Virus record (IMG/VR): IMGVR_UViG_3300011271_000004
Coordinates: 1 to 64,000 of that record
DNA: 64,000 nucleotides
Strand: one strand, 5' to 3'
Origin: a virus
Shown here: positions 28,936-43,125 of the stretch, piece by piece
Numbering within the stretch: the stretch's first letter is position 1
How the letters are laid out: each line of letters opens with the position of its first letter
Made by a program: the position numbers and the translations under genes
Notes under the pieces: generated by a model
The model's database searches: none
The model's input: only the letters and a program-made list of their open reading frames with translations
Told to the model about the DNA's origin: nothing

Positions 28936-29005
28936 CGCCTGCTCCTCTCCACTGCCCACCAGTGTGTACCGGCGGGGCCTGCCAGGGCCTAAGTGCCCAC
29001 CAGGG
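28936..29005 (-). promoter_or_regulatory. promoter/operator cassette P4 (degenerate dyad)
   Basis: Minus-strand read: TTAGGC-N18-TACACA, with dyad GCCCAC-CA-GTGTGT (28954-28967) overlapping the -10 and followed by AGTGGAGAGGAGC. Confidence 0.4.
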
Positions 29006-29037
29006 CGGCCACCATGGGGTGGCCGCCCGCAGGGCCA

Positions 29038-29778
29038 TCAGGAGCCGAGCAGGGCCGCCTGGCGGGCGTGGCACACCGGGCCGATGCCCCGCTCCACGCT
29101 CTCCGCCACCCGCAGGTGCCGGCCGCACACCAGGCACGATTCCCACTGGATGCTCAGGGCGGTCACCTCGGCCATGGGCAAGGCGTCGGCCTTGGTGAGG
29201 CGGTACTGCATGCCCGGCACCTTGCGCTCCTCGATGCGCACCCGGTTGCCCTGCTGGTTGAGGCGGTCGCCTTGGGCGTCGGTCAGCGGCACGATCTCCC
29301 GGGCGTACCGCACCTTGCGGTGCTCGCCCTGGGGGGTGAACTCGCGCACCACGTACAGCTTGCCGTCTTGGCGGTACACGCCCACCTCGGCGGGGGTGTC
29401 ATTGCGGGGGGCCTGCGGCTGCGGCGCGGCCTGGCGGGGGCTGTCGCCACCGTCCAGGGCCGCCCACACCGGCTGGTAGCCGGCGGCGGTCAAAGTGTCG
29501 ATCCAGCGGCTGGCGGTGGCCCTGGCCATCGGGGTGCCGTCACCAGGGGTGCGCTGGTTGGTGTCGTGGGCCTCAAGCTGCGCCCAGCACCGCTCCCAGT
29601 CGCCGTCGCCTTGGCCGGCGAACAAGGCGTTGCCCAGCAGGGTGGCCTTGATGCGGCGCACCTGGGGCTCGGTGGCCCCACCCTGGTAGCCGCCGCGCTG
29701 GTAGTGGCGCGGGGCCTGGGCGTAGCCGTTGCGGTAGCGGTACTGGCTGGCGTCGCGTGGTGCGTAGATCCGGTTCAT
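29038..29778 (-). CDS. protein with C-terminal zinc-ribbon (DUF6011-like, GIGPVC motif)
   Basis: ATG at 29778 follows GGAGAGGAGCACAAC. The C-terminus reads CLVCGRHLRVAESVERGIGPVCHAR. Confidence 0.6.
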   Translation of the reverse strand: MNRIYAPRDASQYRYRNGYAQAPRHYQRGGYQGGATEPQVRRIKATLLGNALFAGQGDGDWERCWAQLEAHDTNQRTPGDGTPMARATASRWIDTLTAAGYQPVWAALDGGDSPRQAAPQPQAPRNDTPAEVGVYRQDGKLYVVREFTPQGEHRKVRYAREIVPLTDAQGDRLNQQGNRVRIEERKVPGMQYRLTKADALPMAEVTALSIQWESCLVCGRHLRVAESVERGIGPVCHARQAALLGS

Positions 29779-29850
29779 GTTGTGCTCCTCTCCACCACCG
29801 ACAATACGCACACCAGTGTGCGGGCGCAAGGGGTTCCGCGCAGATTGCGC
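29779..29850 (-). promoter_or_regulatory. promoter/operator cassette P5
   Basis: Minus-strand read: TTGCGC-N17-TATTGT, with perfect dyad CGCACAC-TG-GTGTGCG (29807-29822) in the spacer, followed by GGTGGAGAGGAGCACAACATG. Confidence 0.55.
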
Positions 29851-29856
29851 GTATGC

Positions 29857-29903
29857 GGCGGCCCCGCCGCGCCCCTTGGAGAGGAGCACGCGGCGGGGCC
29901 GCC
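29857..29903 (-). terminator. 15-bp perfect-stem hairpin
   Basis: GGCGGCCCCGCCGCG-17 nt-CGCGGCGGGGCCGCC lies just downstream of the stop at 29915. The loop contains TTGGAGAGGAGCA. Confidence 0.55.
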
Positions 29904-29914
29904 TCCGTGTTGGT

Positions 29915-30385
29915 CTAGCAGGGGCCGCGCTGGCCGGGGGCGTGGCCGTCGTGTGGGTAAGGCCCTGGCCCGCACGGGTCGCCGGGCTGCCCGCAGTAGT
30001 AGTAGCCGGCCTGCGCCTGCGCGCAGTGGCGGGCGCGGGTGGCGGCCAAGGCATCGCTCGGCGGGTACAGGTAGCCGCCATCTGGGCGCTCCCATATATC
30101 ACCGGCCGGGCAGGCCCACAGCGTGGCGTGTGACCCCACGTGGGCCAGGCCCAGCGGTGCCCCGTGCTGCGGGCAGGTGGGGCCGCCCACGTCCACCGGG
30201 TACCCCGGCTCGCTGCGGGTGGCCTGCCGGCACATGTCCACGGCCAGCAGCCACTGGGTGGCGTTGAGGCCGTGGCGGTCGAGGCGGGCCAGCATGGTGG
30301 CGGCCTGGGGGCTGGCGGCGGCGTTGGCGCGCAGCCAGTGCTCGGCCTGCTGCCGGGTGATCCCGGGGCGGGTGGTGGTGTTCAC
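29915..30385 (-). CDS. hypothetical Cys/His-containing protein
   Basis: GTG at 30385 forms a GTGA overlap with the upstream stop. 156 aa. Confidence 0.5.
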   Translation of the reverse strand: MNTTTRPGITRQQAEHWLRANAAASPQAATMLARLDRHGLNATQWLLAVDMCRQATRSEPGYPVDVGGPTCPQHGAPLGLAHVGSHATLWACPAGDIWERPDGGYLYPPSDALAATRARHCAQAQAGYYYCGQPGDPCGPGPYPHDGHAPGQRGPC

Positions 30386-30549
30386 AGTGGGGTACCAACC
30401 TTCGTCATGTGGGCGTCGGTGCACCGGCCGGCCTCGTAGTAGAAGACCTGCCGCCAGGTGCTGCCATCGGGGCTGCTGAACGGCTGACCGTACAACGTGC
30501 CGGTCCAGCGGGCTGCTATGGCCTGCGCGTGGCTGATGCTGGGGCTCAT
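30382..30549 (-). CDS. hypothetical small protein
   Basis: ATG at 30549 follows AGTGGAGAGGAGCACCCA. 55 aa. Confidence 0.5.
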   Translation of the reverse strand: MSPSISHAQAIAARWTGTLYGQPFSSPDGSTWRQVFYYEAGRCTDAHMTKVGTPL

Positions 30550-30613
30550 TGGGTGCTCCTCTCCACTACCCATCATGCGCGCACACTGGTGTACCGCGCA
30601 AGAGGGTGGGGGC
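30550..30613 (-). promoter_or_regulatory. promoter/operator cassette P1
   Basis: Minus-strand read: TTGCGC-N18-CATGAT, with dyad GTACAC-CA-GTGTGC (30581-30594), followed by AGTGGAGAGGAGCACCCAATG. Confidence 0.5.
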
Positions 30614-30656
30614 ATAAAAGCACCGGAGCCCCGGCGTGGTACCGGAGCCCCGGTGC
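30614..30656 (-). terminator. intrinsic terminator after the DUF1996-like gene
   Basis: On the minus-strand RNA: a 15-bp stem with 2 G-U pairs, a 7-nt loop, then UUUUAU. On the plus strand the same positions are A-C mismatches. Confidence 0.65.
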
Positions 30657-30676
30657 GTGGAGGGGGCGCGCCAGGG

Positions 30677-31753
30677 TTACGTGGGCATGTTGTTGCCACG
30701 TGGCCCGGTGTGCGGGTTCGGCGGACAGGTCTGCCCGGCGATGAGACAGTCCTGCACCAGGTCGTCCAGGCCGCCGAGGTTGTCACCCGCGCCGAAGTTG
30801 CCCCGCTGCCAGCCGTTCATGAAGTCGGCATGCGCCTGATACCAGGGCATCATCGTGCCGTCCGCGTACTCGAAACCGAAGGCGGGGGCCACCGCCGACC
30901 CGGCCAGGCAGGACTGGCCAGGGCACGGGGTGACGATGCCGGTGTGGAAGTGCAGGCCCACCACCGGCAGGCGGATGGGGAACCCAGCCGGGCAGGTACC
31001 GGATACCGGGTAGGCGTAGCTGGCACGATCCGATGCGGCCAGCCCGGTCCAGCAGGACGGCAGCAGAACAACCATCACCACGCCGTCAGCGTCGCTGGCC
31101 AGGTTGATGTAAGGCCCGCAATCGTACGGGTGCGCCTCATGGGGGCTTGTGTTCCCGCAAGCCCAGTACACGGCATTCTGCCCCTGCACCCCGGTGGCGG
31201 CGGGGTTCCCGCCGACAGCCTCCATCTGCGCCGGGAGGCCGGTGATCAGGGAGCGGCTGGCCCCGCCCAGGCCGTAGTAGGCGCGGATGTTCGTGTAGTG
31301 GCAGGCGGGCAGCCCGGCCGCGCCGGTGACGCAGGGTCCGCCCGCGCCGTGGTACGTCTGCGTCTCCCTAGGCCCCAGGGTCAGAGTCGGAGCCCAGTAG
31401 GCGGCGGTGTCGGTGGAGGTGGTGCATGATGTGGCCCCCAGGCCAGCGGCCCGCAGGCTGTCTGGGGTGGAGGCGGGGCTGATGCCGGTGGCCCCGAAGA
31501 AATCGTGGAAGTGGGGGGTTGTGGTGCTGCCCGGGTCCACAACCGGGTCGAACGTGCCGGATATGACAAAACCGCACTTGGTCCAGAAGTCCACGCCGTT
31601 GCCCGCCAGGGCGGGGGCGGCCAACGCCGCCGTGAGGGCCAAGGCGGCGGCCAGGGCCAGCAGGCCCAGCCAGACGCCGGGTGTTCTCGTGCCAGTTGGT
31701 TTTCCCATGCTGCCCATGCTGGGTGGCCGGCGGGTGCTGTGCCAGCGGGACAC
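30677..31753 (-). CDS. secreted DUF1996-like protein (moron candidate)
   Basis: Signal peptide ...GVWLGLLALAAALALTAALAAPALA|G. The motif FDPVVDPGSTTTPHFHDFFG is like DUF1996. Cys-rich. The likely start is an internal ATG at 31717 or 31708. Confidence 0.6.
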   Translation of the reverse strand: MSRWHSTRRPPSMGSMGKPTGTRTPGVWLGLLALAAALALTAALAAPALAGNGVDFWTKCGFVISGTFDPVVDPGSTTTPHFHDFFGATGISPASTPDSLRAAGLGATSCTTSTDTAAYWAPTLTLGPRETQTYHGAGGPCVTGAAGLPACHYTNIRAYYGLGGASRSLITGLPAQMEAVGGNPAATGVQGQNAVYWACGNTSPHEAHPYDCGPYINLASDADGVVMVVLLPSCWTGLAASDRASYAYPVSGTCPAGFPIRLPVVGLHFHTGIVTPCPGQSCLAGSAVAPAFGFEYADGTMMPWYQAHADFMNGWQRGNFGAGDNLGGLDDLVQDCLIAGQTCPPNPHTGPRGNNMPT

Positions 31754-31775
31754 ACCAAGGGGGGGAAAGATCGGG

Positions 31776-31803
31776 GGCCACCGCGCTTCCCTGCGCGGCG
31801 GCC
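31776..31803 (-). terminator. hairpin after the upstream operon
   Basis: GGCCACCGCGC-ttccct-GCGCGGCGGCC has one G-U pair on the minus-strand RNA. It lies between the stop at 31818 and the DUF1996-like gene. Confidence 0.45.
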
Positions 31804-31817
31804 CCGGGCCTGGGCGA

Positions 31818-32063
31818 TCAGCCCACCGGCACTGGGGGGCTGGCCTGGCGCGGCCACACCACGGTGCCGGTGCCGGCCTCGGCGGTGCAGATCACCTGGC
31901 TGGTGCCGCGCTGCACGTGGCGTACCACGTAGTTGCGGTCGCGGGCCTTGGCCTGCTGCGCGGCCACGGCCACCATGGTGTCGAAGTCCTCACGGCGGCC
32001 CTGGGCGGTGTGGTCCCACGCCTCCCGGTGGCCCTCCTGGCGGGTCTCGTAGTAGTCCATCAC
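31818..32063 (-). CDS. hypothetical protein
   Basis: GTG/ATG at 32063/32060 follows GGAGAGGAGCAC. 81 aa. Confidence 0.5.
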   Translation of the reverse strand: MMDYYETRQEGHREAWDHTAQGRREDFDTMVAVAAQQAKARDRNYVVRHVQRGTSQVICTAEAGTGTVVWPRQASPPVPVG

Positions 32064-32266
32064 GTGCTCCTCTCCTGCCGTGCGTGCATGGCGGTGGCTG
32101 CTGCTGCGCGGGCCTGGGCGGCACGCTCGTAGGCGTCGCGGGCGTCGCGGGCCACCGGGTGGTCCTCGCTGCCGTGGCGGGCCACAGCTACCTGCCAGGC
32201 GTAGTGGGCCTGCCCTGCGGTGCGGTCGGCGGCCTTCAACGCGGCCAGGGTGCCCAGGCGGGCCAT
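32060..32266 (-). CDS. hypothetical helical protein
   Basis: ATG at 32266 forms an ATGA overlap with the upstream stop. 68 aa. Confidence 0.45.
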   Translation of the reverse strand: MARLGTLAALKAADRTAGQAHYAWQVAVARHGSEDHPVARDARDAYERAAQARAAAATAMHARQERST

Positions 32267-32559
32267 CACGCCACCGCCTTGCGCATGGTGCAGGTGAAGC
32301 TCGCCGGGTAGTCGATGCTGCCGCCGGCGGGGGTGGCCACGGTCAGCTTGACGCCGGGCACGTTCTGGCGGCGGCCACGGCGGCCACGGATCGGCGCAGG
32401 GGTGTACTGCTCCCACCGCCACGACGGGGCCACCTCCAGCACGGTGCTGCGCACGTCGGCGCCGGCCACGCGCTCCTGGGTGGGCACGGCCACCAGGAAG
32501 TCGCCGGGCTGCACGTCGGCCAGGGTGGCCTGCTGGGCTTCGGCCCACACTCCGGTCAC
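32266..32559 (-). CDS. hypothetical protein
   Basis: GTG at 32559 forms a GTGA overlap with the upstream stop. The ORF-track start is 32574. Confidence 0.45.
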   Translation of the reverse strand: MTGVWAEAQQATLADVQPGDFLVAVPTQERVAGADVRSTVLEVAPSWRWEQYTPAPIRGRRGRRQNVPGVKLTVATPAGGSIDYPASFTCTMRKAVA

Positions 32560-32759
32560 GGCAGCACCACCCACTCACCTGCGGGCAGCGCGGCCTTGGC
32601 CTGGGTGTAGGTGCCGCGCTGCCACACCACCTGGGTGTAGTCGCCGGCGGCCAGGGCGGCCTTGGCGGCGCGGGTGTTGGGCAGGAAGGCCCAGCAGCCT
32701 TCGCCGCGCGGGTCGGCCAGGTGGCTGGCCCGGTACTGGCTGGTGTCGAAACGCTTCAT
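32556..32759 (-). CDS. hypothetical small protein
   Basis: ATG at 32759 follows AGTGGAGAGGAGCACCCA. 67 aa. Confidence 0.55.
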   Translation of the reverse strand: MKRFDTSQYRASHLADPRGEGCWAFLPNTRAAKAALAAGDYTQVVWQRGTYTQAKAALPAGEWVVLP

Positions 32760-32832
32760 TGGGTGCTCCTCTCCACTAACGAACCTACCGCCCACTGGTG
32801 TGCGGGCGGTAGGGGTTCGGCGGAGAAACTTG
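32760..32832 (-). promoter_or_regulatory. promoter/operator cassette P2
   Basis: Dyad CGCACAC-CA-GTGGGCG (32789-32804, one mismatch), a -10-like TAGGTT, then AGTGGAGAGGAGCACCCAATG. Confidence 0.45.
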
Positions 32833-32838
32833 GGCAGA

Positions 32839-33180
32839 TTATGCGGCGGCGTACCGGGCGGCGTTGGCGCGGTACCGGGCGGCCAGGTCGCGGTAGAACG
32901 CCGCCAGGCCGGTGGTGTGGAACGACGCGCGCAGGTAGGTATTGCCGATCCGCTCCCAGCAGCGGGCGCGGGTCTCCACCTCGGCCGGGGTGTACCGCAG
33001 GGCGGTGTCCCACATGTCGGGGCGGCGGGTCAGCCACCGGGCTTCGCGCCACGCCTTGGCGGCGGTCTGGTAGAACTCCTCGGCCTGGCGGGCCTCGCGC
33101 TCGGCGCGGCGGGTGAAGTTGCCGGCCTTGCGGCTGGCGCTGGTGGCCTCGCGGCGGCTGTCGTTGCTGTAGTAGCTCAT
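32839..33180 (-). CDS. hypothetical helical, Arg-rich protein
   Basis: ATG at 33180 follows AGTGGAGAGGAGCACCCG. 113 aa. Confidence 0.55.
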   Translation of the reverse strand: MSYYSNDSRREATSASRKAGNFTRRAEREARQAEEFYQTAAKAWREARWLTRRPDMWDTALRYTPAEVETRARCWERIGNTYLRASFHTTGLAAFYRDLAARYRANAARYAAA

Positions 33181-33260
33181 CGGGTGCTCCTCTCCACTGC
33201 CGAAGGTACACGTGTGTACCGGCCCGCGCAACCCTGGGCGGTAAACCATCCGGTTACCGT
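33181..33260 (-). promoter_or_regulatory. promoter/operator cassette P3
   Basis: Minus-strand read: TTGCGC-N17-TACCTT, with dyad GGTACAC-AC-GTGTACC (33205-33220). GGTAAACCatccGGTTACC lies upstream at 33240-33258. Confidence 0.55.
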
Positions 33261-33279
33261 GAACCGGCTGGGCATGGCA

Positions 33280-33313
33280 GCGGCCCCGCACCCGGCACTC
33301 GGGGCGGGGCCGC
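33280..33313 (-). terminator. hairpin after the HTH gene
   Basis: GCGGCCCCGC-14 nt-GCGGGGCCGC lies downstream of the stop at 33334. Confidence 0.45.
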
Positions 33314-33333
33314 GCCAGCGGGGGCCTGTCAGG

Positions 33334-33768
33334 CTACCGTGCGGCGGCGTATTGCTGGTGGCCGCTGAAGTACCGGTGCCACTGCTCGGCGGCCTGCACC
33401 GCCCCCTCGGGGCCAGCGCCGGCCTCCAGTGCGGCGGCCACCGGGTCCGCGCCGGCGTCCACCAGTTCGCGCCACCGGTCGCGGGCGTGGCGGATGCCAG
33501 AGATCGGGCGGCGGCCCCGCAGCCACTGGTGGCCGTCGCCGGGCTCGGGGGCTGCGGCGTGCCAGGCGGCGTCCTGCGGGTGCTCATCCAGGTAGGCCAG
33601 CCAGCGGGCTATGGTGCGGTCCACGGCGTCCTCAGGCACGTCCAGGCGCAGCGCTGCGGCGCGCTGGGTCATGCCCATCACGGTGGTCAGGAAGACCCAT
33701 TCCTCGCGGCGGGCGGTGGCCTTGGCCATGTGCGCTTGGATCATGGCGGGCACGTGGGTGGTGGTCAT
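33334..33768 (-). CDS. HTH DNA-binding protein
   Basis: ATG at 33768 follows GGAGAGGAGCAAGCACA. HTH-like segment MTQRAAALRLDVPEDAVDRTIARW. Confidence 0.55.
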   Translation of the reverse strand: MTTTHVPAMIQAHMAKATARREEWVFLTTVMGMTQRAAALRLDVPEDAVDRTIARWLAYLDEHPQDAAWHAAAPEPGDGHQWLRGRRPISGIRHARDRWRELVDAGADPVAAALEAGAGPEGAVQAAEQWHRYFSGHQQYAAAR

Positions 33769-33829
33769 TGTGCTTGCTCCTCTCCGGTTGCCGGGCGGCC
33801 CCGCCGGGCTGGGCGGGAGCCGCCCGGGT

Positions 33830-34792
33830 CTAGCTGTCCTCGGCCAGCAGGGCCAGCACCAGGCCGGTCACGCGGGCGCTTTCCTCGGCGGCCTCATCGT
33901 CGTTGTCCTGGCGCACCTGGGGGTCCTGGCGGGCATCGATGGCATCGGTGATGATCTGGTCCATCACCGGCACCGGCAGGCCGTCCGCCTCGGCCTTGCC
34001 CGCGTCGTCCAGCAGGTCGGCGGCCTGCGCCTGGTCGAGGGTGAGCGCGATCCGCTCAAACTCCAGCCACCCCTCGTCTAGGTAGTGGTGGTTGGCGGCC
34101 CACGCCTTGCTGTCCTCGGCGCTGGTCTCTGCGATCATCAGCCCGTGCGGGTCGTAGTCGCTGATGCGCAGCACCAGCGTGGGCACCAGGCGGTCGGCGG
34201 CGCGTTCCGCGAAGGCCCGCTTGCCTTTCAACCCGTCAAACCCGCCCCCGGAGTACACCGGCACGCCGTAGGGGCCAGCTATGCGGGCGCAGCGGCCCAT
34301 CAGCCCGGCGGCCTCCACCACCAGTTCCAAGAAAACGGCCTGGCCGCGCTGGGGGCTGTAGGTGATGCGCGGGGCGCGCACCTGGTCGGCCAGGTACTCC
34401 GCCTCGGTCTCGGCGGTCTCCTCGTTGTAATACGGCACGTCGGGGCGTGGTGCCCGGGTGTCCTCAATCCACCCCTCGGGCACGATCCCCGCACGGCGCA
34501 AATTGGCCAGCATTTCCTGCACGTGCACCGGGGCGGTCTCGGTGGGGTCCACCCGGCGGCGCTTGCCCGCCGAGCCGGGCACGGGTTCCATGCGGGGCTG
34601 CTTCACGTAGGTCAGGCCGTGGCCCATGCCGTGGGGGCGCAGGTCGTAAAACAGGCCCCGGGGGCTACGCGGCAGCGTGTCCTCCCGCTGGTGCTGTTGC
34701 AGGCGCTCCAAGATGTCCAGCATCAGCATGCGGCCCACGGTGGTGCTGGGCCGCCAATCGCCGGGCATTGGCCCCTTCGGGCGTACGGGCAT
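33830..34792 (-). CDS. Spo11/Topo VI-A-like protein (5Y-CAP-like + Toprim-like), 'mini-A'-type candidate
   Basis: RGLFYDLR is a candidate catalytic Tyr. LELVVEAAG supplies the Toprim Glu. SGGGFDG...LVLRISDYDPHGLMI matches the D.DP.G Toprim motif. 320 aa. Confidence 0.55.
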   Translation of the reverse strand: MPVRPKGPMPGDWRPSTTVGRMLMLDILERLQQHQREDTLPRSPRGLFYDLRPHGMGHGLTYVKQPRMEPVPGSAGKRRRVDPTETAPVHVQEMLANLRRAGIVPEGWIEDTRAPRPDVPYYNEETAETEAEYLADQVRAPRITYSPQRGQAVFLELVVEAAGLMGRCARIAGPYGVPVYSGGGFDGLKGKRAFAERAADRLVPTLVLRISDYDPHGLMIAETSAEDSKAWAANHHYLDEGWLEFERIALTLDQAQAADLLDDAGKAEADGLPVPVMDQIITDAIDARQDPQVRQDNDDEAAEESARVTGLVLALLAEDS

Positions 34793-34805
34793 GGTGTTCT
34801 CCTCC

Positions 34806-35033
34806 CTAGTCGGCCAGCAGCCACGGCGGCAGCCCATGAGCCAGGCGCGCGGCTGGGGTCTGCTCGACCGCGAGGGCCAGGCCATCGCAGCGGTCCGCTG
34901 CGGCGCGCAGCCTGGCCCGGTAGTCGGCGTGCTGCGGGCCAGCGTTGGCGTGCGACTTGGCCAGGCGGCGGCTGGCGGCGGCCTGATTGACCAGGGCGGC
35001 GTAGACGGTTTCCTTGATCACGGCAGGGGTCAC
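34806..35033 (-). CDS. hypothetical protein
   Basis: GTG at 35033 follows GGAGAGGAGCGCAC. 75 aa. Confidence 0.5.
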   Translation of the reverse strand: MTPAVIKETVYAALVNQAAASRRLAKSHANAGPQHADYRARLRAAADRCDGLALAVEQTPAARLAHGLPPWLLAD

Positions 35034-35113
35034 GTGCGCTCCTCTCCAAGGGCCAGGCGGGCTGCCTGCCCGGTTGGGTGCGCGGCCGGTGGTGGCCCGT
35101 GCACCCTCGGGGC

Positions 35114-35386
35114 CTACAGGGCCTCCAACTCCTCCGGGTCGAAACCCACCGGCTCGGGCTGGGCGTAGGTGCGGCCTGCGGCCAGGTCTTCGGCGTGGTC
35201 AGCGGCCTGCGCGTCCATGTACACCCATACCGTGCCGGTGAAGTCGGGGGCACCGGGCTGGGCCATCATGGCCACCAGCGCGGGGGTTGCCGCCACGACG
35301 GTGCCATACTCGCCGTCCAAGATGCCGTACCTGGTGTCCGTCACGCGCACCCGGGTGCCGGGCTCGTGGCTGCTGTGCTCGCTCAT
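35114..35386 (-). CDS. hypothetical acidic protein
   Basis: ATG at 35386 follows TTGGAGAGGAGCGCCCA. 90 aa. Confidence 0.55.
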   Translation of the reverse strand: MSEHSSHEPGTRVRVTDTRYGILDGEYGTVVAATPALVAMMAQPGAPDFTGTVWVYMDAQAADHAEDLAAGRTYAQPEPVGFDPEELEAL

Positions 35387-35462
35387 TGGGCGCTCCTCTC
35401 CAAGGCCCGACAGTACACCAGTGTGCGGGGCGCGGGAAGGGGTTTGCCCAACCTGCGCCCCG
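35387..35462 (-). promoter_or_regulatory. promoter/operator cassette P6
   Basis: Minus-strand read: TTCCCG-N17-TACTGT, with dyad CGCACAC-TG-GTGTACT (35412-27). Confidence 0.5.
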
Positions 35463-35510
35463 CGCCCTTGGCCGCTGCACGCCCGGAAGGGGCCGGGCCT
35501 GCACCCTTCC

Positions 35511-35714
35511 CTATCCAGGTTCGGCGGCGTTGGTGCGAGCCTCGCCGGTGGCCGCACCTTCCGGTCGGCCGTATGCCAGGAAGTCACAGTGGTTCTCAGC
35601 GGCGGTGATAAGTAGCTGGCGCATGGTGGTGTCCCGCTCGGCGGCGTACATGCGCAGCTTGCGCCGCAGGTCGCTGGGGAACTTCTCAACGGTCAATGCC
35701 CGATCAGTGGCCAT
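35511..35714 (-). CDS. ribbon-helix-helix (CopG/Arc-like) DNA-binding protein
   Basis: RALTVEKFPSDLRRKLRMYAAERDTTMRQLLITAAENH fits a beta-strand/helix/helix layout. ATG follows GGAGAGGAGCACACTGCCG. Confidence 0.55.
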   Translation of the reverse strand: MATDRALTVEKFPSDLRRKLRMYAAERDTTMRQLLITAAENHCDFLAYGRPEGAATGEARTNAAEPG

Positions 35715-36630: not shown

Positions 36631-37925
36631 TGGGGCTCACCACCCGCCGGGGGGGCCTGCGCGGCGGCGATGATGGCCTCAGCCGCACCGGCCAGGGCGG
36701 CCAGCCGCTCGTGCGGGTCCTGCTTGGCGGCATCGGCCAGAATGGCATCCAACCGCCCGGCCACCCGCTCGGCCTGCTCGGCGTCCAAGGCGGTGGCGTT
36801 GGCCACCAGGCCCAGCGGGTCCGTGTCGGCGTGGCGCAGCAGCATGGACACCACCAGGCGGCGTGCCTCCATATCCGCCTTGGCCTTGCCACCGTAACCG
36901 GCCTGCCGGAACGCGGCCTGGATGGAGCGCAGCGCGTTGGCACGGCGCACGTCCTCAGGATCCGCGCCGACACCCTGGCCGCCCTGCGCCTGCTGGCCGC
37001 CGGGCGTGCCCTGCGCCGCGTCCCGCTCGGCCTGCGCCAGTGTGGCCGCCGCGCTGGTGCCCGCACCGCCGCCATCGGGGAACGCTTCCTCGCGGGTGGT
37101 CTCCCCGCGCTGGATCGAGCGGTATGCCACCGTCAAGCCGGCCAGGTCCACCGTGCCCCACGTGGCGAACGGCAGGCCCACCCGGGCCTCCAGCATCTGC
37201 TGGGTGACGCCAACGGCGGCGAACTTGGCCACCGCGTCCTTGCGCCGCGCCGGCAGCGTGTCCGGGTCACCAGCCAGCGTCTTGTAGCACAGGGCCTTGG
37301 CCATTTCCACGAACCAGGCGGGCAGGATCCGCTCGATCATGGCCCGCTCGCGGCGGCTGGCCAGGTTGGCATTGTTCTCGTAGATGTCCCGGTCGCTGTC
37401 CAGGTCGGCCTGGCCGCCCTTGCGTTCGCTGCGGTCACGCACGTGGCGCACCAGGAACGTGGTGGACATGCGGGTGTTGGTTTCCATGTCCCACGCCCAT
37501 GACTGCATTTCGCTGCTGCCCGGCTCGGTGGCGCTGGGCGCGTGGCGCTGTAGCTCGATGATCCCTGATTGGGCGTTGCCCCAGCAGCGCAGCAGTTCAC
37601 GGGCCAGTTGCACGGTGATGCCGGTGACCCGCTGGTTGCCCCGGGGGAACTCGTAGAACGCCTGGTCGGCCATGAACGGCTGCTCGCAGGAGCGGCGCAT
37701 TTCCTGCTGGGCGGCCACCTGGTTGCGGCGGTGCGCCTTGGCGGTGACCACCATCGCCTGCACCTCTGCGATGGCGGCGGCCATCTGCACCCGGGTGGCC
37801 TGGGTGTAACCATCCGGCGGCCCCATGATCGGGGCCATGGCCACCTGCTGCGGCCTGCCGTTGGGCTCCTCGTGCCCGGCCACCTCAGCCGGGTGCGGTG
37901 CCTGGTCTGCCTGGTCTGCTGACAT
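36627..37925 (-). CDS. putative single-strand annealing / recombination partner protein (family not recognised)
   Basis: 432 aa immediately downstream of the PD-(D/E)XK exonuclease. The conserved-looking core is FYEFPRGNQRVTGITVQLARELLRCWGN...AWDMETN. It does not look like canonical RecT to me. Confidence 0.45.
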   Translation of the reverse strand: MSADQADQAPHPAEVAGHEEPNGRPQQVAMAPIMGPPDGYTQATRVQMAAAIAEVQAMVVTAKAHRRNQVAAQQEMRRSCEQPFMADQAFYEFPRGNQRVTGITVQLARELLRCWGNAQSGIIELQRHAPSATEPGSSEMQSWAWDMETNTRMSTTFLVRHVRDRSERKGGQADLDSDRDIYENNANLASRRERAMIERILPAWFVEMAKALCYKTLAGDPDTLPARRKDAVAKFAAVGVTQQMLEARVGLPFATWGTVDLAGLTVAYRSIQRGETTREEAFPDGGGAGTSAAATLAQAERDAAQGTPGGQQAQGGQGVGADPEDVRRANALRSIQAAFRQAGYGGKAKADMEARRLVVSMLLRHADTDPLGLVANATALDAEQAERVAGRLDAILADAAKQDPHERLAALAGAAEAIIAAAQAPPAGGEPQ

Positions 37926-37939
37926 GTGGTGCTCCTCTC

Positions 37940-38773
37940 CTACCTGGCCCACCGGGGCCAATCCAGCGTGGTTATGGCCTGGCCGGGCTGGTACCCCGGC
38001 CACTCACCAGCCTCAACGCACCGCGCATATTCGCGCCGCGCGCGGGCTATGTCCGCCTGGGCGGCCTCAATGGCCTCCCACGGCAGTTCGTAGATGCCCA
38101 CCAGGTACGGGGGCTCTTTCTCCTGGGCGACGAACAAGAACCGTGGGTCCGCATCGCCCAGGGTGTGGGTGACACCCTGGGCGTACCACACGCCTTGCCA
38201 GTGGTAGCGGTAGTTGGCCGCAGCCTTGGCGAACCCCTCCGGGTCGGCGTGCGCCGCCGACTTGAAATCGGTGATCACCACCCGCCCGGCCAGCTTCACC
38301 GCATCGAACCGGGCGCGCAGCATGATGCCGGTGTCCGGGTCCTCCCAGAAGAAACTGTGCTCGGCCAGCACGTCCTCAGCCGACAGCAGCAACGCGGCGG
38401 TGGGGTGGGTGCGGATAGCTGCGGCCATGGCCACAATCCGCTCCCGCTGCTCAGGCTTGATCGGCACCTTGCCGACGTCGCGCTGCTCGGCGGCCCACTC
38501 CTGGGCGGCCTTGGTCTTGTAATCGGCCCACGGGGACACCACGTAGGGCCAGCCTGCGCCAAGCACCTCACGGTGCGCGGCGGTGCCGAACTCCATTGCG
38601 CTGGTAGGCGGCCGGGGTGTTTTGCGTGACCACTGATACAGCGCCGGGCAGCCCGGTGGCAGCAGCAGCTTGGCCCCCGAGCACGACAGGGAGCCCCCGG
38701 GCCACGGGTCGGCGTGGTAGTCGGCCTCAGCCAGGTCCGGGTACACCCCTGGCTTACTCAGGATCGCTGGCAT
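37940..38773 (-). CDS. PD-(D/E)XK exonuclease (RecE/Cas4/YqaJ-like)
   Basis: Motifs ARFDAV...VITDFKS (D...D.K) and HWQGVWY (Q...Y). 277 aa. Confidence 0.7.
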   Translation of the reverse strand: MPAILSKPGVYPDLAEADYHADPWPGGSLSCSGAKLLLPPGCPALYQWSRKTPRPPTSAMEFGTAAHREVLGAGWPYVVSPWADYKTKAAQEWAAEQRDVGKVPIKPEQRERIVAMAAAIRTHPTAALLLSAEDVLAEHSFFWEDPDTGIMLRARFDAVKLAGRVVITDFKSAAHADPEGFAKAAANYRYHWQGVWYAQGVTHTLGDADPRFLFVAQEKEPPYLVGIYELPWEAIEAAQADIARARREYARCVEAGEWPGYQPGQAITTLDWPRWAR

Positions 38774-39122
38774 GGCCGCCTTCTGGTGTGCCGCTGGTGA
38801 GCGTGTGGGCGACCACGGACAGGCCGCCTGGGCCGCTGGGGTATGTCACGGTACCGGCCCCCAGCGGGCCAACAATGTAATCGACTGGCTTCTTGGCCGA
38901 CTGGGCGCGGCGCACCGCCACGGTGTGCTGGTCACCATTCACACTGGGCACCGCCACGGTGCGGGGCCACCGCCACTGGTTGCGGATCAGCAGGTACACC
39001 GGGTCACGCGGTGACGGCCACGCGGGTAGCACATTGCCATGCGGGCAGGCGGGCACCAGCAGCGACGCCAGGCCCTGGCCGCGTAGCTCCAGCGCGGTGT
39101 GCAGCTTCAGCGGCTCAGGCAT
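38754..39122 (-). CDS. hypothetical protein
   Basis: ATG at 39122. 122 aa. Overlaps both neighbouring genes. Confidence 0.45.
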   Translation of the reverse strand: MPEPLKLHTALELRGQGLASLLVPACPHGNVLPAWPSPRDPVYLLIRNQWRWPRTVAVPSVNGDQHTVAVRRAQSAKKPVDYIVGPLGAGTVTYPSGPGGLSVVAHTLTSGTPEGGHASDPE

Positions 39123-39321
39123 CGGGGGCCGCCTCCGCGCCGAACCAGGCAGGCAGTACCACCAGCCGGCCCGCGCGGGACTCCAGCACCACCACCGGGC
39201 CGCTGTGGTAGCCCACCAGGTGGCCGGTCCAGGTGAACCCGGTGGGGCTGGTCACCCGCACCCGCTGCCCCCACAGCGCGTCCACGACGGTTGGCACCGC
39301 CTGGGGGTCGTGGTCAGGCAT
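39115..39321 (-). CDS. small beta-rich protein
   Basis: ATG at 39321. 68 aa. Confidence 0.45.
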   Translation of the reverse strand: MPDHDPQAVPTVVDALWGQRVRVTSPTGFTWTGHLVGYHSGPVVVLESRAGRLVVLPAWFGAEAAPDA

Positions 39322-39883
39322 TGCTGCCCACCTCCCGCAGGCACATGTTGCACACTGGCAGCCGCGCGGCCACCGCCTGCTGCTTCTCACCGGCCCAGCC
39401 CAGCCACCCATCCTCGGGGGGCTCGGCCCCGCACTGGGCGTTGGCACCAGCCAGCCGCAGCGCCAGGTGGCCCATGCGCGCCCCGGGCTGGTACACCCGG
39501 GTGATGTCGGGCAGCGGCGGCCCCTGGTGCATGGGGTTGTCGTTGGTGCAGTACCCGACGACGTGGGCCAGAGCGTGCAGCCGGGCCGGGGTGTCGTGCT
39601 GGCATTGGCGGGCGGCCACCCGCTGCCAGGAGCAGCCGCAGCCGAACACCACAGTGCACCGCCGGCAGCCCTGGCCGCGCATGAAGGCATGCGTGGCGTC
39701 GTCCACCGGCAGGTACTGCACCGCCCAGCCCTTCACGCCCAACCACGAGTACAGGGTGTGCAGTTGGGTCACCGTGGCCTCCAGGGTGCCCCGGTTGGCC
39801 AGGCTGCCCACATGCCCGTCGTCGTGGACCATGGACAGCACAATCTCCCGGCCCAGCGCGTCGCGGCGCATCGTGCCGGCCAT
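39314..39883 (-). CDS. Cys-rich hypothetical protein
   Basis: ATG at 39883 forms an ATGA overlap with the upstream stop. It has several CxxC-like clusters (CRRCTVVFGCGCS, CNMC). Confidence 0.5.
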   Translation of the reverse strand: MAGTMRRDALGREIVLSMVHDDGHVGSLANRGTLEATVTQLHTLYSWLGVKGWAVQYLPVDDATHAFMRGQGCRRCTVVFGCGCSWQRVAARQCQHDTPARLHALAHVVGYCTNDNPMHQGPPLPDITRVYQPGARMGHLALRLAGANAQCGAEPPEDGWLGWAGEKQQAVAARLPVCNMCLREVGSNA

Positions 39884-40311
39884 CACAACTCCTCCACCCG
39901 GTAGGGCCGACCGCTGGCACCGTAGGCCACCCAGTAGCCGCCGCTGGTGCGCTTGGCGTCCTCGGGCACTTCCATCAGCGTGTCGGGACAGTGGGCTGTG
40001 CGGCGCGGCTGCGGCGCTGGCATGGGGGCTGGCGGCGGCGGGGACGCCATGCTGGGCAGCGCGCGCACGGTGCGGCGGCGGCTGGGCTGGTAGTAGAACG
40101 TGCCAGCGCGCTGGTGGCCGGTGCGGGTTAGCTCGGTGCCATAACGGGCCATGCGGCCCAAGATCGTGGACACCAGGCCCACCGGCAGCCCGGTGGCCTC
40201 GGCCACCTCGGGCACGGTCACCGCACCTGGGCCGGTAGCGGCCAGGTGGTTTTCTATAACCGGCTGGGCGTTCTTGTTCGGTCCTCGCCCCGGTTCGGGC
40301 ACACTGTTCAT
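39883..40311 (-). CDS. winged-HTH DNA-binding protein
   Basis: ATG at 40311 follows GTGGAGAGGAGCAGCGC. VTVPEVAEATGLPVGLVSTILGRMARYG resembles a MarR/wHTH recognition region. Confidence 0.55.
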   Translation of the reverse strand: MNSVPEPGRGPNKNAQPVIENHLAATGPGAVTVPEVAEATGLPVGLVSTILGRMARYGTELTRTGHQRAGTFYYQPSRRRTVRALPSMASPPPPAPMPAPQPRRTAHCPDTLMEVPEDAKRTSGGYWVAYGASGRPYRVEEL

Positions 40312-40539
40312 GCGCTGCTCCTCTCCACAAGGCGGCCACCGGGGGTACCCCCGGGGCCTGCGGTGTCGAGTATGGCATGGGCTACCCACATTCTCAGCCA
40401 GCCGTACGACAGAACCCCAGGTCGCACCGCCCGCCACGGCGGCAGGTACCTTGTAAGAGTCAGCGCAGCGAAGGTTGAGGGCGGCGAGCCCTCCCGCCCC
40501 AGTTGCAACGCTCCTCTCCAAGAAGCGACTGACGCCCCC

Positions 40540-40566
40540 GAGCCCCGGTCTCATACACCGGGGCTC
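40540..40566. other. 10-bp perfect-stem hairpin in the divergent region
   Basis: GAGCCCCGGT-ctcatac-ACCGGGGCTC. Confidence 0.5.
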
Positions 40567-40604
40567 CTGGGTTTACAGGGTGCTGTGTGGTGCACCCTTG
40601 GGGC

Positions 40605-41351
40605 ATGAGAACACTACGCACCGCCGCCGCGCTGCTCGCTGTTGCACTGCTCGCCGCCTGCGCCACCACCACCGCCACGGCCCCACGTGGTGATCATGGC
40701 AACGTGGAGGCCACCGCCCCCGGCCCGGCTACCGCACCACACTGCGGCGTCGAACGGTGGGCGGTGAAAACGGGCACCGACCCCGGCGCGGCCAGTGTTG
40801 ACCTGGCGCACGTGGTGCCAACGACGGTCACCACCCTGGCTGGCTTGCCGGTGCCGCCGGGCATCGACCAGAACCCCGACCAGCGGGCCGCCCCGGCCGA
40901 AACCACCGTGTACCAGGTGCACGCGATCTTGGTCGAGTACAAGCAGGAAGGCGACAATGACTGGCACCTGGTGATCCGCGACGATCAGGGCAGCACAATG
41001 ATTGCCGAGATCCCCGCGCCGGCGTGCGTTGGCCCCGGGTCGCCGTTCGCCACGCTGATCGCCCAGGCGCGGGCCGCGTTCGCCGCGCAGTACGCGCCGG
41101 GGGATTACTGGCAGCCCGCCGGGGTGCCGGTGGTCCTCACTGGGGTGGGGTTCTTCGACCGGCTGCACGGCCAAACCGGTGTCGCGCCGAACGGCATCGA
41201 GTTGCACCCGGTGCTGGGCGTTGTCCTCGGCGGTGGCCCGCAGCCCACCGCGTCACCCAGCCCAGCGCCGACCGGCCCGCAGCCCAGCCCGTCACCATCG
41301 GGATGCCGCCGGCACCTCCGGGGCTCGTGCAAGCCCACCGGCATCCCCTAG
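40605..41351 (+). CDS. secreted lipoprotein (moron candidate), plus strand inside the minus-strand arm
   Basis: MRTLRTAAALLAVALLAAC is a lipobox (LAAC). Conserved-looking blocks are ERWAVKTGTD, DNDWHLVIRD, TGVGFFDRLHGQTGVAPNGIELHPV. The ORF-track start at 40587 is less likely. Confidence 0.65.
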   Translation: MRTLRTAAALLAVALLAACATTTATAPRGDHGNVEATAPGPATAPHCGVERWAVKTGTDPGAASVDLAHVVPTTVTTLAGLPVPPGIDQNPDQRAAPAETTVYQVHAILVEYKQEGDNDWHLVIRDDQGSTMIAEIPAPACVGPGSPFATLIAQARAAFAAQYAPGDYWQPAGVPVVLTGVGFFDRLHGQTGVAPNGIELHPVLGVVLGGGPQPTASPSPAPTGPQPSPSPSGCRRHLRGSCKPTGIP

Positions 41352-41361
41352 ACGAGGGGAA

Positions 41362-41396
41362 GCCCCCGGGGCCACCTAGCTGGTGGCCCCGGGGGC
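41362..41396. terminator. bidirectional 15-bp perfect-stem hairpin
   Basis: GCCCCCGGGGCCACC-tagct-GGTGGCCCCGGGGGC lies between the convergent lipoprotein gene and the minus-strand operon. Confidence 0.65.
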
Positions 41397-41503
41397 CAGG
41401 CCGCCCGGGAGCGGTTGTTTACCGGGTGGCCTTCGGCGGGGTGGAGGCCCCCGATGAGGGGGGGTAGGCGGCCCGATCAATGCCGCCCTGGCCCCGCCGC
41501 CGT

Positions 41504-41797
41504 TTAGGGCACTGCCTCGTCGTAGCGGACGGTGGCCCACACGGTCAGGCAGTTGGCGCAGTGCAGGCACACCTCCGCCTGCTGGCCACGCAGCCCCGGC
41601 TCGGCGTAGGGGCCGCGCAGCCCCGGCACCGGGCGGGCGCAGCACCTGGGCAGCCGCAGCACCTGCCCGCTGTCCAGGGTCAGCCGGGTAGTGGGCCAAT
41701 GCTCGTGGCCTTCGGGGCGGTCCAAGCTGGTGGCCCCCGCACGTACCCACACGGGGGCCATGCCGTCTCCTACCCGCTCGGGATCGGGGCTAGCCAT
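41504..41797 (-). CDS. small Cys-containing protein
   Basis: ATG at 41797 overlaps the upstream stop. CC...CLHCANC motif. Confidence 0.45.
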   Translation of the reverse strand: MASPDPERVGDGMAPVWVRAGATSLDRPEGHEHWPTTRLTLDSGQVLRLPRCCARPVPGLRGPYAEPGLRGQQAEVCLHCANCLTVWATVRYDEAVP

Positions 41798-42287
41798 CGG
41801 CCAGCAGGCCCAGCCGGGTGGCTGCCGCCCGCTCGGCGGGGGTCAGGGTGATCTGGTCGGTAACCCGGGGAAGTACCAATCGCAGATCACCCACCAGGCC
41901 CGTCATGTCCACGGCTGCCTGGTCATCAGGTAGCGGGCCATCCACTACGCGGGCGGCTTCCTTTGGCAGGTCGCGCACCGCCTGGGCCAGCGCCAGCACG
42001 GCGTACGCGGTGGCCACCTGGGCCTGCACGGCGGGCACCTGCTGGGCGGGCACCACGCCAGGTATGTCCTGCTCGGCCCGTTCGGCCAAGGTGCCAGCCA
42101 TGGCCATCAGGCCCTCCGCCCCGTACCCGGCGGCCTTGCTCGGGTAAGTCTCGGTGGCCCCAAACTGCTCAGTCGGGATACCAGGGCACTCCCAGGTGTC
42201 GGGGCTACCGCCGCCCCAAGCGGGGCCACTGTCGCCCCATACATGCGGCGCGTGGGGGGCCTTGCTAGTGCAAGGTGCGTGCATCAT
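41790..42287 (-). CDS. hypothetical protein
   Basis: ATGATG at 42287 follows GGAGAGGAGCGA. 165 aa. Confidence 0.5.
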   Translation of the reverse strand: MMHAPCTSKAPHAPHVWGDSGPAWGGGSPDTWECPGIPTEQFGATETYPSKAAGYGAEGLMAMAGTLAERAEQDIPGVVPAQQVPAVQAQVATAYAVLALAQAVRDLPKEAARVVDGPLPDDQAAVDMTGLVGDLRLVLPRVTDQITLTPAERAAATRLGLLADG

Positions 42288-42466
42288 TCGCTCCTCTCCG
42301 TCACCCGCACGACGCGGGTAAGTTCATCCGGTACCGCCGACGCCTGGATGGGCACCCCGCCATCGGTGAAGTGCACCCAGGCCCGGCCGTTCTCCATGTG
42401 CACGATGATGCCAGGCCGCCAGTCCAGCACCACCCGCTGCGCCTGGCGCATGTCCTTGGCCCTCAC
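42284..42466 (-). CDS. hypothetical small protein
   Basis: ATG at 42466 overlaps the upstream stop. 60 aa. Confidence 0.45.
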   Translation of the reverse strand: MRAKDMRQAQRVVLDWRPGIIVHMENGRAWVHFTDGGVPIQASAVPDELTRVVRVTERSE

Positions 42467-42678
42467 CGGGCACCGGCCGCCAGCACCGGGGTGCCCTGAG
42501 CGTATGCCTCGGCACCGTCACCCAGCATGGCCACCAGCAGCAAGGCCACCAGCTTGGCGGTGCGGTCAGCCGCCGCGTCCCCCTCGTCCATCTGGGCGCA
42601 GATCGACGCCGCGAACGCCTCAACCCGGGCCACCCGCACGGGGTCGCCCGACTCGTAGTCCTCCTGGGGCGTGGGCAT
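42463..42678 (-). CDS. hypothetical acidic protein
   Basis: ATG at 42678 follows TTGGAGAGGAGCAACCAC. 71 aa. Confidence 0.5.
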   Translation of the reverse strand: MPTPQEDYESGDPVRVARVEAFAASICAQMDEGDAAADRTAKLVALLLVAMLGDGAEAYAQGTPVLAAGAR

Positions 42679-42710
42679 GTGGTTGCTCCTCTCCAAGGCT
42701 GGGGCTGATG

Positions 42711-43061
42711 CTACGCCTGGGCGGGGGCACCGGCCTGGCGGGCGGCCACACGGCTGCGCGCCGGGCTGGCCGGCCCCCACCGCTTGTTCACGGCCTGCTT
42801 GCTGGTGCCGGTACCAGAGGCCACCAGCGTGCCGCCCACCTGGTCCATCAGGGCCACAGCGGTGTCGTCCACCAGGTCCGCCAGCAGCGCCTGCACCTGG
42901 AGCAGCATGGCCAGGCCGTTCTCCGGGTCTTCCTCGGCGCAACGGCGGGCGGTGCTGCGGATCATGCGGCCCAGGAACTTGGCCTGCTCAGCCGGCTCGC
43001 GCTTGCGAAGCTGCGCGGCGGTCATTTCGGGCTTGGCCTGGGGGGTGCGGGTGGGGCTCAT
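42711..43061 (-). CDS. HTH DNA-binding protein, first gene of the leftward operon
   Basis: ATG at 43061 follows AGTGGAGAGGAGCACCCA. HTH-like segment LVASGTGTSKQAVNKRW. It is divergent from the replication genes. Confidence 0.55.
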   Translation of the reverse strand: MSPTRTPQAKPEMTAAQLRKREPAEQAKFLGRMIRSTARRCAEEDPENGLAMLLQVQALLADLVDDTAVALMDQVGGTLVASGTGTSKQAVNKRWGPASPARSRVAARQAGAPAQA

Positions 43062-43125
43062 TGGGTGCTCCTCTCCACTACCCAAGGTACACGGGTGTGC
43101 GGGGTAAACCAAGGGTTTACCGGAG
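43062..43125 (-). promoter_or_regulatory. promoter/operator cassette P7
   Basis: Minus-strand read: TTGGTT-N17-TACCTT, with dyad CGCACAC-CC-GTGTACC (43086-43101). The perfect palindrome GGTAAACC-aag-GGTTTACC lies at 43103-43121. Confidence 0.55.

Follow-up and report, generated by a model that had tools for sequence, protein, structure and literature searches.

A 64,000-nucleotide stretch of viral DNA (IMG/VR record IMGVR_UViG_3300011271_000004, positions 1 to 64,000; hereafter the window, 71% G+C) comes from a phage genome of about 73 kb. Its plus strand carries virion and lysis genes from position 1 to about 27.5 kb, a leftward arm of some 31 mostly small genes runs from 43.1 down to 27.9 kb, and a rightward arm, which begins at 43360, encodes a replication initiator, a DnaB helicase and a RuvC-like protein. 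At least six short gene units are headed by copies of one module of about 55 bp, here called a cassette: read 5' to 3', it consists of a -35-like hexamer, a 14-bp palindrome (GYACACNNGTGTRC, GYACAC-NN-GTGTRC) that lies in the spacer or runs into a -10-like hexamer, a 10-nt start-associated sequence (SAS; GGAGAGGAGC) and a start codon. These cassettes, named P43 to P29, are real, conserved regulatory modules; we call type A those in which the palindrome overlaps the -10 and type B those in which it lies upstream of it (Table 1).

A sequence-only reading of this DNA had proposed seven minus-strand sites sharing a single layout and an eighth copy on the plus strand. All eight are present, and the hexamers and 17-18-nt spacers are as it described them, P32 having no -35 match. 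The shared layout holds for six full cassettes but not for the remaining two sites: at P28 (palindrome at 28954) the palindrome abuts the SAS and no -10 is found in the usual place, and at P48 (48392) palindrome and SAS are 33 nt apart.

Table 1. Coordinates of the cassettes and other features of the window. Profile matches are those of the relatives-only profile described in the text; handles beginning with L in the table are loci of related phages.
Feature	Position	Strand	-35-like	Palindrome	-10-like	SAS	Start codon	Profile match (E)	Remarks
P43	43059-43112	minus	TTGGTT 43112-43107	GCACACccGTGTAC 43100-43087, exact	TACCTT 43089-43084, overlapping palindrome	GGAGAGGAGC 43076-43067	ATG 43061-43059	43127-43059 (7.6e-17)	Type A; heads 116-aa gene 42711-43061; layout kept upstream of orthologous gene in L042, L044, L059, L060
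P35	35384-35438	minus	TTCCCG 35438-35433	35426-35413, exact	TACTGT 35415-35410, 8 nt to SAS	35401-35392	ATG 35386-35384	35451-35384 (5.2e-8)	Type A-like; orthologues L048, L044
P33	33178-33231	minus	TTGCGC 33231-33226	GTACACacGTGTAC 33219-33206, exact	TACCTT 33208-33203	33195-33186	ATG 33180-33178	33242-33178 (5.3e-13)	Type A; second palindrome just upstream, 33240-33258; orthologues L045, L044, L043
P32	32757-32811	minus	no match	GCACACcaGTGGGC 32803-32790, 1 mismatch	TAGGTT 32787-32782	32774-32765	ATG 32759-32757	32822-32757 (2.5e-12)	Type B
P30	30547-30601	minus	TTGCGC 30601-30596	GTACACcaGTGTGC 30594-30581, exact	CATGAT 30577-30572, 18-nt spacer	30564-30555	ATG 30549-30547	30610-30547 (2.9e-14)	Type B
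P29	29776-29829	minus	TTGCGC 29829-29824	GCACACtgGTGTGC 29821-29808, exact	TATTGT 29806-29801	29793-29784	ATG 29778-29776	29839-29776 (1.2e-16)	Type B; orthologues L045, L044, L001
P28	28933-28967	minus	none in usual register	28954-28967, degenerate, 2 mismatches, 3 nt from SAS	none in usual register	28950-28941	GTG 28935	28971-28940 (0.0015), partial	Atypical
P48	48392-48456	plus		GTACACtcGTGTAC 48392-48405, exact		48439-48448, 33 nt downstream of palindrome	GTG 48454	48416-48391 (0.0025), partial	Atypical
SAS-only	42685-42694	minus							Before gene 42463-42678; no palindrome, no -10
SAS-only	42290-42299	minus							Before gene 41790-42284
SAS-only	40317-40326	minus							Before MarR-like gene 39883-40311
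SAS-only	37931-37940	minus							Before gene 36627-37925
SAS-only	35724-35733	minus							Before RHH-like gene 35511-35714
SAS-only	35038-35047	minus					GTG		Before gene 34806-35033
SAS-only	33776-33785	minus							Before HTH_23-like gene 33334-33768
SAS-only	32066-32075	minus							Before gene 31818-32060
SAS-only	50192-50201	plus							Before gene 50209-50523
Further SAS copies	53447-53456, 58970-58979	plus
Further SAS copies, 1 mismatch	55160-55169, 44202-44211	plus
Intrinsic-terminator-like hairpin	30620-30656	minus							U-tract; ends P32 unit, just upstream of P30
GC-rich hairpin	29857-29903	minus							Ends P30 unit, upstream of P29; z -4.9; kept in L045, L044
GC-rich hairpin	33272-33319	minus							Ends P35 unit, upstream of P33; z -3.8
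Hairpin	29002-29029	minus							Ends P29 unit, upstream of P28; weak against shuffles, z -1.4
Second palindrome	43103-43121								GGTAAACC-N3-GGTTTACC, perfect match; overlaps -35 of P43
Large terminase	1822-3552	plus
GH25 lysin	26141-27172	plus

The cassettes are non-random and conserved

The background expectation, which had been proposed as a check, separates the motif from chance: six exact palindromes were observed where 100 Markov-2 simulations predict 0.04, and its 10-bp core, ACACNNGTGT, occurs at those six places only in 64 kb, with 1.2 expected. The 21-nt leader AGTGGAGAGGAGCACCCAATG, allowing up to three mismatches, is present in five copies (30547, 32757, 33178, 35384 and 43059), all on the minus strand, against an expectation of zero. 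A methylation or restriction site can be ruled out for the palindrome, the core being present at six regulatory sites only.

Relatives of this phage were found in metagenomes only. The SAS, a gap of 2-20 nt and the palindrome, searched as one pattern, retrieved the syntenic soil contigs Ga0070707_100000672 (seven matches) and Ga0126379_10000407 (four); a terminase search retrieved IMG/VR contigs whose terminase is 79% identical, and two further contigs (L059 and L060) were added through homologues of the 116-amino-acid (aa) product of the P43 gene. At the nucleotide level, genes of these relatives are about 65-88% identical to those of the window. A profile hidden Markov model (nhmmer) built from 18 cassettes of related contigs only, with this genome left out, returned exactly six full-length matches in the window (E 7.6e-17 to 5.2e-8), with the two atypical sites appearing as partial matches. 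When orthologous intergenic regions from four to five lineages are compared, the upstream sequence is unalignable and the segment from the -35 (about -45) through the ATG is nearly invariant; the layout is kept at orthologous positions in several related metagenomic phages despite diverged flanks. The palindrome is identical in all relatives found, whose loci together hold 30 unique palindrome-SAS sites.

Beyond these relatives the arrangement was not encountered. The exact 21-mer leader is absent from IMG/VR and from the genomes of 185,579 species, and the gapped SAS-plus-palindrome pattern is absent from the same number of species (one genome each), with no prophage copy found; blastn of a 70-nt cassette against 50,697 phage records gave chance matches only, and megablast of positions 28000-44000 against those records gave zero matches and hence no close isolated phage. 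Searches for the non-structural arms of more distant relatives, made with the 432-aa and exonuclease proteins, yielded two remote loci or none.

Comparison of close relatives suggests that cassettes are gained, lost and elaborated. The site at 42685-42694, which carries only an SAS in the window, corresponds to a full cassette in L042 and L059. In L059, two palindromes that start 25 bp apart (7639 and 7664; 7639-7677) flank a -35 after the orthologue of the 116-aa gene. P32 lies within a longer palindrome of 30 bp (32782-32811; CCTACCGCCC-GCACACCAGT-GGGCGGTAGG), which supplies its -10 TAGGTT and replaces the -35, and its positional counterpart in L045 (7958) is an ordinary type B cassette with a TTGCGC -35. 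Such coming and going, as in the full cassette against the bare SAS at 42694, is what functionless relics of duplication or of a small mobile element, or chance, might produce, but that reading is effectively refuted by the conservation and the profile search: no copies are expected by chance, the motif is kept in five or more lineages with flanks too diverged to align, its position relative to start codons is strict, and the copies have neither terminal repeats nor target duplications.

The two atypical sites may not be promoters of the same kind as the six. The P28 orthologue (L045, 4996) has GTACACtgGTGGGC 3 nt from its SAS. L042 and L059 share the P48 palindrome letter for letter, central TC included, but differ in the flanks; a possible promoter there would combine a TACACT -10 inside the left half-site with TGGACA 19 nt upstream. 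About 526 nt past window position 64000, L057 holds a further site (13551-13576, plus strand) whose palindrome, GTACACtgGTGTGT, lies 2 nt from an SAS in a geometry like that of P28. This extra site outside the window brings the palindrome sites of the full 73-kb genome to nine or more.

The leader is a start-associated sequence of many non-structural genes

The leader had been read as part of the cassette. It is instead a start-associated sequence used across the non-structural genes, some 20 of which carry it, mostly with no palindrome, and the promoter-palindrome block is added at only some of these. Perfect copies of the 10-mer number 21 (16 minus, 5 plus) and stand before starts on both strands; 20 of 62 non-structural genes have the SAS upstream, as against none of 26 structural ones. 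Most copies lie 5 nt before the start codon, which is ATG in 17 of the 20 genes versus 39 of 68 for the others. The SAS can form nine contiguous pairs (two of them G-U) with the 3' tail of actinobacterial 16S rRNA, at -12.4 kcal/mol against about -9 for other genes; the tail used is the general actinobacterial sequence. From its position and this pairing potential the SAS is clearly a translation signal, a predicted ribosome-binding site that is also used inside operons lacking promoters.

A single SAS stands in reverse orientation, with GGAGAGGAGC on the plus strand at 29878-29887, inside the upper part of the hairpin upstream of P29 (29857-29903). This hairpin holds the exact reverse complement of the SAS and its flanks (GTGCTCCTCTCCAAG); its 5' side is kept in two relatives, and its 3' side changes with pairing preserved. 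The reverse copy might act as an anti-SAS. An orphan SAS also occurs at 40510-40519 on the minus strand, in a small hairpin after a terminator-like stem and with no suitably spaced start codon; it lies beside a plus-strand gene embedded in the minus-strand arm (40587-41351), whose product has a lipoprotein-type signal (LLAAC).

The palindrome slides over a predicted core promoter

The combination TTGCnn, N17-18, TAnnnT or CATnAT is found in five of the six window cassettes and in nearly all relatives. Of 26 palindrome-bearing sites, 21 have a -10-like hexamer of the form [TC]A...T at a distance of 7 nt (rarely 8) upstream of the SAS, compared with only 1 of 28 SAS-only sites. With the relatives included, this hexamer takes the forms TACCTT, TATTGT, TATATT, TATTTT, TAGTGT, CATGAT and CATTAT, with A at position 2 and T at position 6 constant, and in this it appears to vary the way a -10 does. 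Upstream of the -35 the conservation exceeds a hexamer (AACCCC-TTGCGC).

The palindrome takes several registers against this fixed frame. Type A palindromes begin 6 nt after the -35 and run into the -10, the TAC of which is formed by their last three bases. Those of type B begin closer to the -35 (1-2 nt) and stop 1-3 nt short of the -10, a shift of about 4 bp relative to the hexamers. Counting relatives, 12 cassettes have the palindrome 10-11 nt from the SAS, overlapping the -10, and 14 sites have it 14-16 nt from the SAS, upstream of the -10, two of these (L046 and L052) looking like chance matches. In two further registers it abuts the SAS (2-3 nt; P28 and the L057 site) or lies 33-42 nt upstream of it (P48). 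At every site the 14 bp fall within about -28 to +1, and in all registers they overlap the core promoter. Because it slides by several base pairs and yet always covers core-promoter DNA, the palindrome is an element separate from the promoter, most likely an operator; judged by its registers, its behaviour is unlike that of a promoter part or of an activator site in fixed register. That the dyad is embedded in a promoter-like layout, as first proposed, is backed by the conservation, by the spacing of -10 and SAS and by the shift in register, all read from the DNA, and a dyad lying over the core promoter and repeated at these predicted promoters is what the operator of a dimeric repressor should look like.

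Several of the units were also said to end in their own hairpins, and this applies to four of seven, those before P33, P30, P29 and P28 (Table 1), an arrangement that would fit termination followed by re-initiation. The strongest terminator of the region follows the gene at 30677-31753, the last gene of the P32 unit, whose 358-aa product combines a signal-like N-terminus with a DUF1996 domain (Pfam 2e-28). This looks like an acquired accessory gene because it is absent from the relatives examined.

With moderate confidence, we interpret the cassettes as promoters for a host sigma factor into which an operator is set, with a leader that is itself an extended Shine-Dalgarno site. Each module would be a SigA/HrdB-type promoter (TTGCnn, 17-18 nt, TAnnnT) overlaid by the 14-bp GYACAC-NN-GTGTRC, with the ATG 5 nt after the SAS. 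An RNA initiated 6-8 nt downstream of the -10 would have its first base 0-3 nt ahead of the SAS and a leader of about 18-20 nt that is nearly all ribosome-binding site; because hairpins end several units, the leftward arm may be pictured as a string of short, separately started units, presumably of early expression. The palindrome would be the operator of one dimeric DNA-binding protein which, bound between -28 and +1, would exclude RNA polymerase and shut all these promoters jointly. We would expect the binder to be phage-encoded, and our best guess is the 116-aa product of the first P43 gene, in which case P43 would be self-regulated.

Several points weigh against this interpretation. A strict scan for the E. 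coli consensus finds none of the sites, and only about 6 of 12 hexamer positions fit TTGACA/TATAAT; a -35 is missing at P32, and P28 and P48 are off the layout. In type A the palindrome itself supplies the TAC of the -10, so the association of -10 and palindrome is partly non-independent. No candidate binder has a significant match to a DNA-binding family or fold in Pfam, PHROGs, NCBIfam or PDB sequence searches, and as the palindrome is common to all relatives, co-variation of protein and site is unusable. Neither an integrase nor a recognisable immunity repressor was found, so that a global repressor could serve temporal shut-off or lysogeny. The sigma-factor and 16S sequences, finally, are assumed from what is general among actinobacteria.

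Some of the same evidence would suit an alternative that we consider unlikely: that the palindrome is a positive element for a phage activator, a sigma-like or an appropriator protein, and the cassettes are middle promoters switched on together. Hexamers that are weak by E. coli standards and escape a strict scan, a P32 with no -35 at all and conservation that extends beyond the hexamer in AACCCC-TTGCGC would all be expected of such promoters, and the product of 33334-33768 is faintly like sigma region 4 or HTH_23. Activator sites, however, are usually fixed relative to the -35, whereas types A and B place the palindrome about 4 bp apart, with larger shifts at P28 and P48, and it always lies on core-promoter DNA that polymerase must contact. 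The 17-18-nt spacers are already optimal, leaving spacer remodelling of the MerR type unneeded, and P43, as the first promoter at the divergent junction, could not start if a phage product were required.

A role at the RNA level, in which the block would serve processing, attenuation or translational control within a long polycistronic mRNA begun further upstream, strikes us as very improbable. It would draw on the SAS being a translation signal that also occurs inside operons without promoters, and on the reverse-complement SAS in the conserved hairpin upstream of P29, which hints at SAS/anti-SAS pairing. The dyad as an RNA hairpin is ruled out, however: arms of 6 bp only 2 nt apart cannot close a loop, and the mirrored variable positions show no co-variation, their commonest combination being the non-pair C/A (12 of 30 sites), with the central dinucleotide free. 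Strong hairpins directly upstream of four cassettes, one with a U-tract, fit termination and re-initiation better, and Rfam covariance models at the gathering score gave zero matches in the whole window.

Candidate binding proteins

Returning to the operator interpretation, we examined the four genes that had been named as candidate binders (42711-43061, 33334-33768, 39883-40311 and 35511-35714). All are conserved in relatives, and no single one stood out. Domain matches are below threshold throughout: HTH_23 for 33334-33768 (0.0024), MarR_2 for 39883-40311 (0.0016) and a ribbon-helix-helix (RHH) domain for 35511-35714 (6.7e-5). The 116-aa product of 42711-43061 has no family match and no significant fold match, but it is the most conserved candidate (63-82% identity in relatives), and its gene is preceded by a P43-type cassette in all five lineages. 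Its predicted structure (predicted local distance difference test score, pLDDT, 81.5) shows two long helices followed by a C-terminal three-helix unit, and the structural neighbours of this model are nearly all helix-turn-helix (HTH) proteins (Fis, sigma region 4, Cro), all at E > 1. We take it, as a best guess, to be the preferred candidate for the regulator that binds the palindrome.

The lack of any phage protein with a significant DNA-binding domain match could also mean that a host transcription factor binds the palindrome and ties this gene arm to a physiological signal of the host, which we rate as rather improbable. The palindrome is identical in all relatives even as the candidate phage proteins fall to 40-80% identity, and its 6-2-6 geometry is one used by host TetR-type regulators such as KstR (TnnAACnnGTTnnA). 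Against this, the motif matches no actinobacterial regulator site known to us, and the SAS-plus-palindrome pattern is absent from the genomes of 185,579 species, a search that required the phage SAS and so did not cover the palindrome alone in host genomes.

The host is probably an actinomycete, because a 703-aa protein (within 55174-57703) is similar to TraB, a plasmid-transfer translocase of Streptomyces (NCBIfam E 6.6e-80, which falls short of the family cut-off), and a 129-aa gene upstream of it matches a TraA-like Pfam family. The TraB-like/TraA-like pair is unusual cargo for a tailed phage.

Comparison with described systems

The cassette had seemed unlike anything described from phages, but its architecture parallels that of Cluster K mycobacteriophages. 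These carry a 13-bp SAS (GGGATAGGAGCCC) 3-9 nt before 11-19 start codons, mostly ATG and in the non-structural arm only, and about half of the sites have an upstream extended SAS (ESAS) bearing inverted repeats (PMC3203893). In Adephagia the ESAS is a 46-47-bp motif in seven intergenic copies, with SigA-like -35 and -10 hexamers 17-18 nt apart and an imperfect inverted repeat, through which repression by an unidentified regulator was considered 'plausible' (PMC11373665); the roles of SAS and ESAS were still called unverified in 2025, in the Yasnaya_Polyana study (PMC12699233). Reading the sites of Anaya directly, we find TTGACA, the left arm, TACTGT, the right arm, about 8 nt and then the SAS.

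Both systems have a purine-rich, asymmetric SAS before non-structural genes that mostly start with ATG (here 20 genes, none structural, 17 with ATG). In both, around half of the SAS genes (here 6-8 of 20) carry an upstream block of about 46-50 bp, in about seven copies per genome, with some form of inverted repeat and with hexamers 17-18 nt apart that are SigA-like in Cluster K and promoter-like at five of six cassettes here, and in both one SAS copy is reversed and unlinked to a gene start. The 10-nt cores are identical at nine of ten positions (GGATAGGAGC in Cluster K, GGAGAGGAGC here), and in both systems function and binder are putative. The full 13-mer, by contrast, matches at 10 of 13 positions (for example TGGAGAGGAGCAC), beyond the published limit of two mismatches: all window SAS copies differ from it by exactly three, a level at which the total count equals chance. 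The Cluster K repeat consists of two 15-17-bp arms, 4-14 bp apart, over the -35 and the -10/+1, whereas here one compact and unrelated 14-bp palindrome occupies the spacer or -10; the -10 lies about 20 nt before the SAS there and 7 nt here. With no nucleotide match, and no significant tblastn match of the arm proteins to the Anaya right arm, the phage falls outside Cluster K. By analogy, the system appears to work like SAS/ESAS while not belonging to that sequence family.

The near-identity of GGA(T/G)AGGAGC in Cluster K and in this soil lineage, actinophages unrelated to each other, raises the idea that the SAS is a dedicated initiation route beyond a strong Shine-Dalgarno site, which we regard as unlikely. 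In both lineages the final C of the core is unpairable with 16S rRNA, the sequence is found at non-structural genes only, and it is coupled to modules of promoter plus inverted repeat. Such a route might, for example, load ribosomes right at the 5' terminus of very short leaders, or involve a phage or host factor that recognises the SAS and favours these mRNAs during takeover, with the conserved anti-SAS hairpin as modulator.

One short site repeated at or near promoters in the non-structural part of the genome is also the pattern of classical repressor regulons, such as the operators of lambda, 434 and P22 and the stoperators of L5 and Cluster A, and it lets one protein govern many transcription units. 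Streptomyces phage phiC31, likewise, has conserved inverted repeats at early promoters. L5 and Cluster A stoperators provide a multi-site precedent (mentioned in PMC3203893), but those of L5 are asymmetric, 13 bp long, orientation-dependent and placed within transcribed regions, whereas the present sites are symmetric, lie in the core promoter and occur at the starts of gene units only. Operators of the lambda type cluster at two promoters, against 6-9 here, and unlike lambda- and L5-type regulons this phage has no repressor gene or lysogeny functions that we could identify. Near-identical intergenic modules heading short units, often after a terminator, further recall the promoters of T7-type phage polymerases and the intergenic repeats of halovirus HF2, which carry promoters (PMC8707807). 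Here, by contrast, the large proteins tested included no recognisable phage RNA polymerase (the 703-aa protein being TraB-like with no PDB match), and the hexamers look like those of a host housekeeping sigma factor.

The cassettes would mark transcription units and true start codons in uncultured soil phages of about 73 kb whose non-structural genes are nearly all of unknown function. They also offer an independent second example of the SAS/ESAS design, whose roles have been open since 2011 and were unproven in 2024-2025. Likeliest to matter are the features common to both systems: a GGAxAGGAGC core, confinement to non-structural genes and coupling to a SigA-like promoter with inverted repeat. 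The differing sequence and register of the repeat point to a lineage-specific DNA-binding protein. As a module of about 55 bp that would combine promoter, operator, 9-bp Shine-Dalgarno and ATG, the cassette may be a compact expression part to try in high-G+C actinomycetes.

Genome context and a second palindrome

The same sequence occurs on JGI soil-metagenome contigs of 73.4-73.6 kb that are circularly permuted relative to the window; the window covers 64 kb of such a circularly permuted assembly (about 73.4 kb) and is rotated with respect to it. The large terminase, near the left end, is at most 35% identical to terminases of isolated phages (Arthrobacter, Brevibacterium and Microcystis phages), and a small-terminase-like gene lies near the right end (62241-63236). 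Searches detected neither an integrase nor an immunity repressor, tRNA or Rfam family.

A second palindrome, which overlaps the -35 of P43 (Table 1), has nine matches with up to three mismatches against 0.04 expected, and its half-site occurs nine times against 0.5. Besides the copy just upstream of P33, it is found at 13955-13973 and, more weakly, at 36083, 54874, 27615 and 46636; it also occurs before the tape-measure gene. It is kept at the P43 and P33 orthologues, a version of it being present in the P43-type cassette of all five lineages, and might serve as the binding site of a further regulator.

The divergent stretch that separates P43 from the replication-initiator gene (43122-43360) contains additional conserved blocks: a GGGGCCGGT...ACCGGCCCC hairpin, TGCAGCGCC and GTACGCC...CACCCCCA. 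In relatives it also includes a GGTGATGCTAT block, the opposite strand of which reads as a possible rightward -10, TAGCAT.

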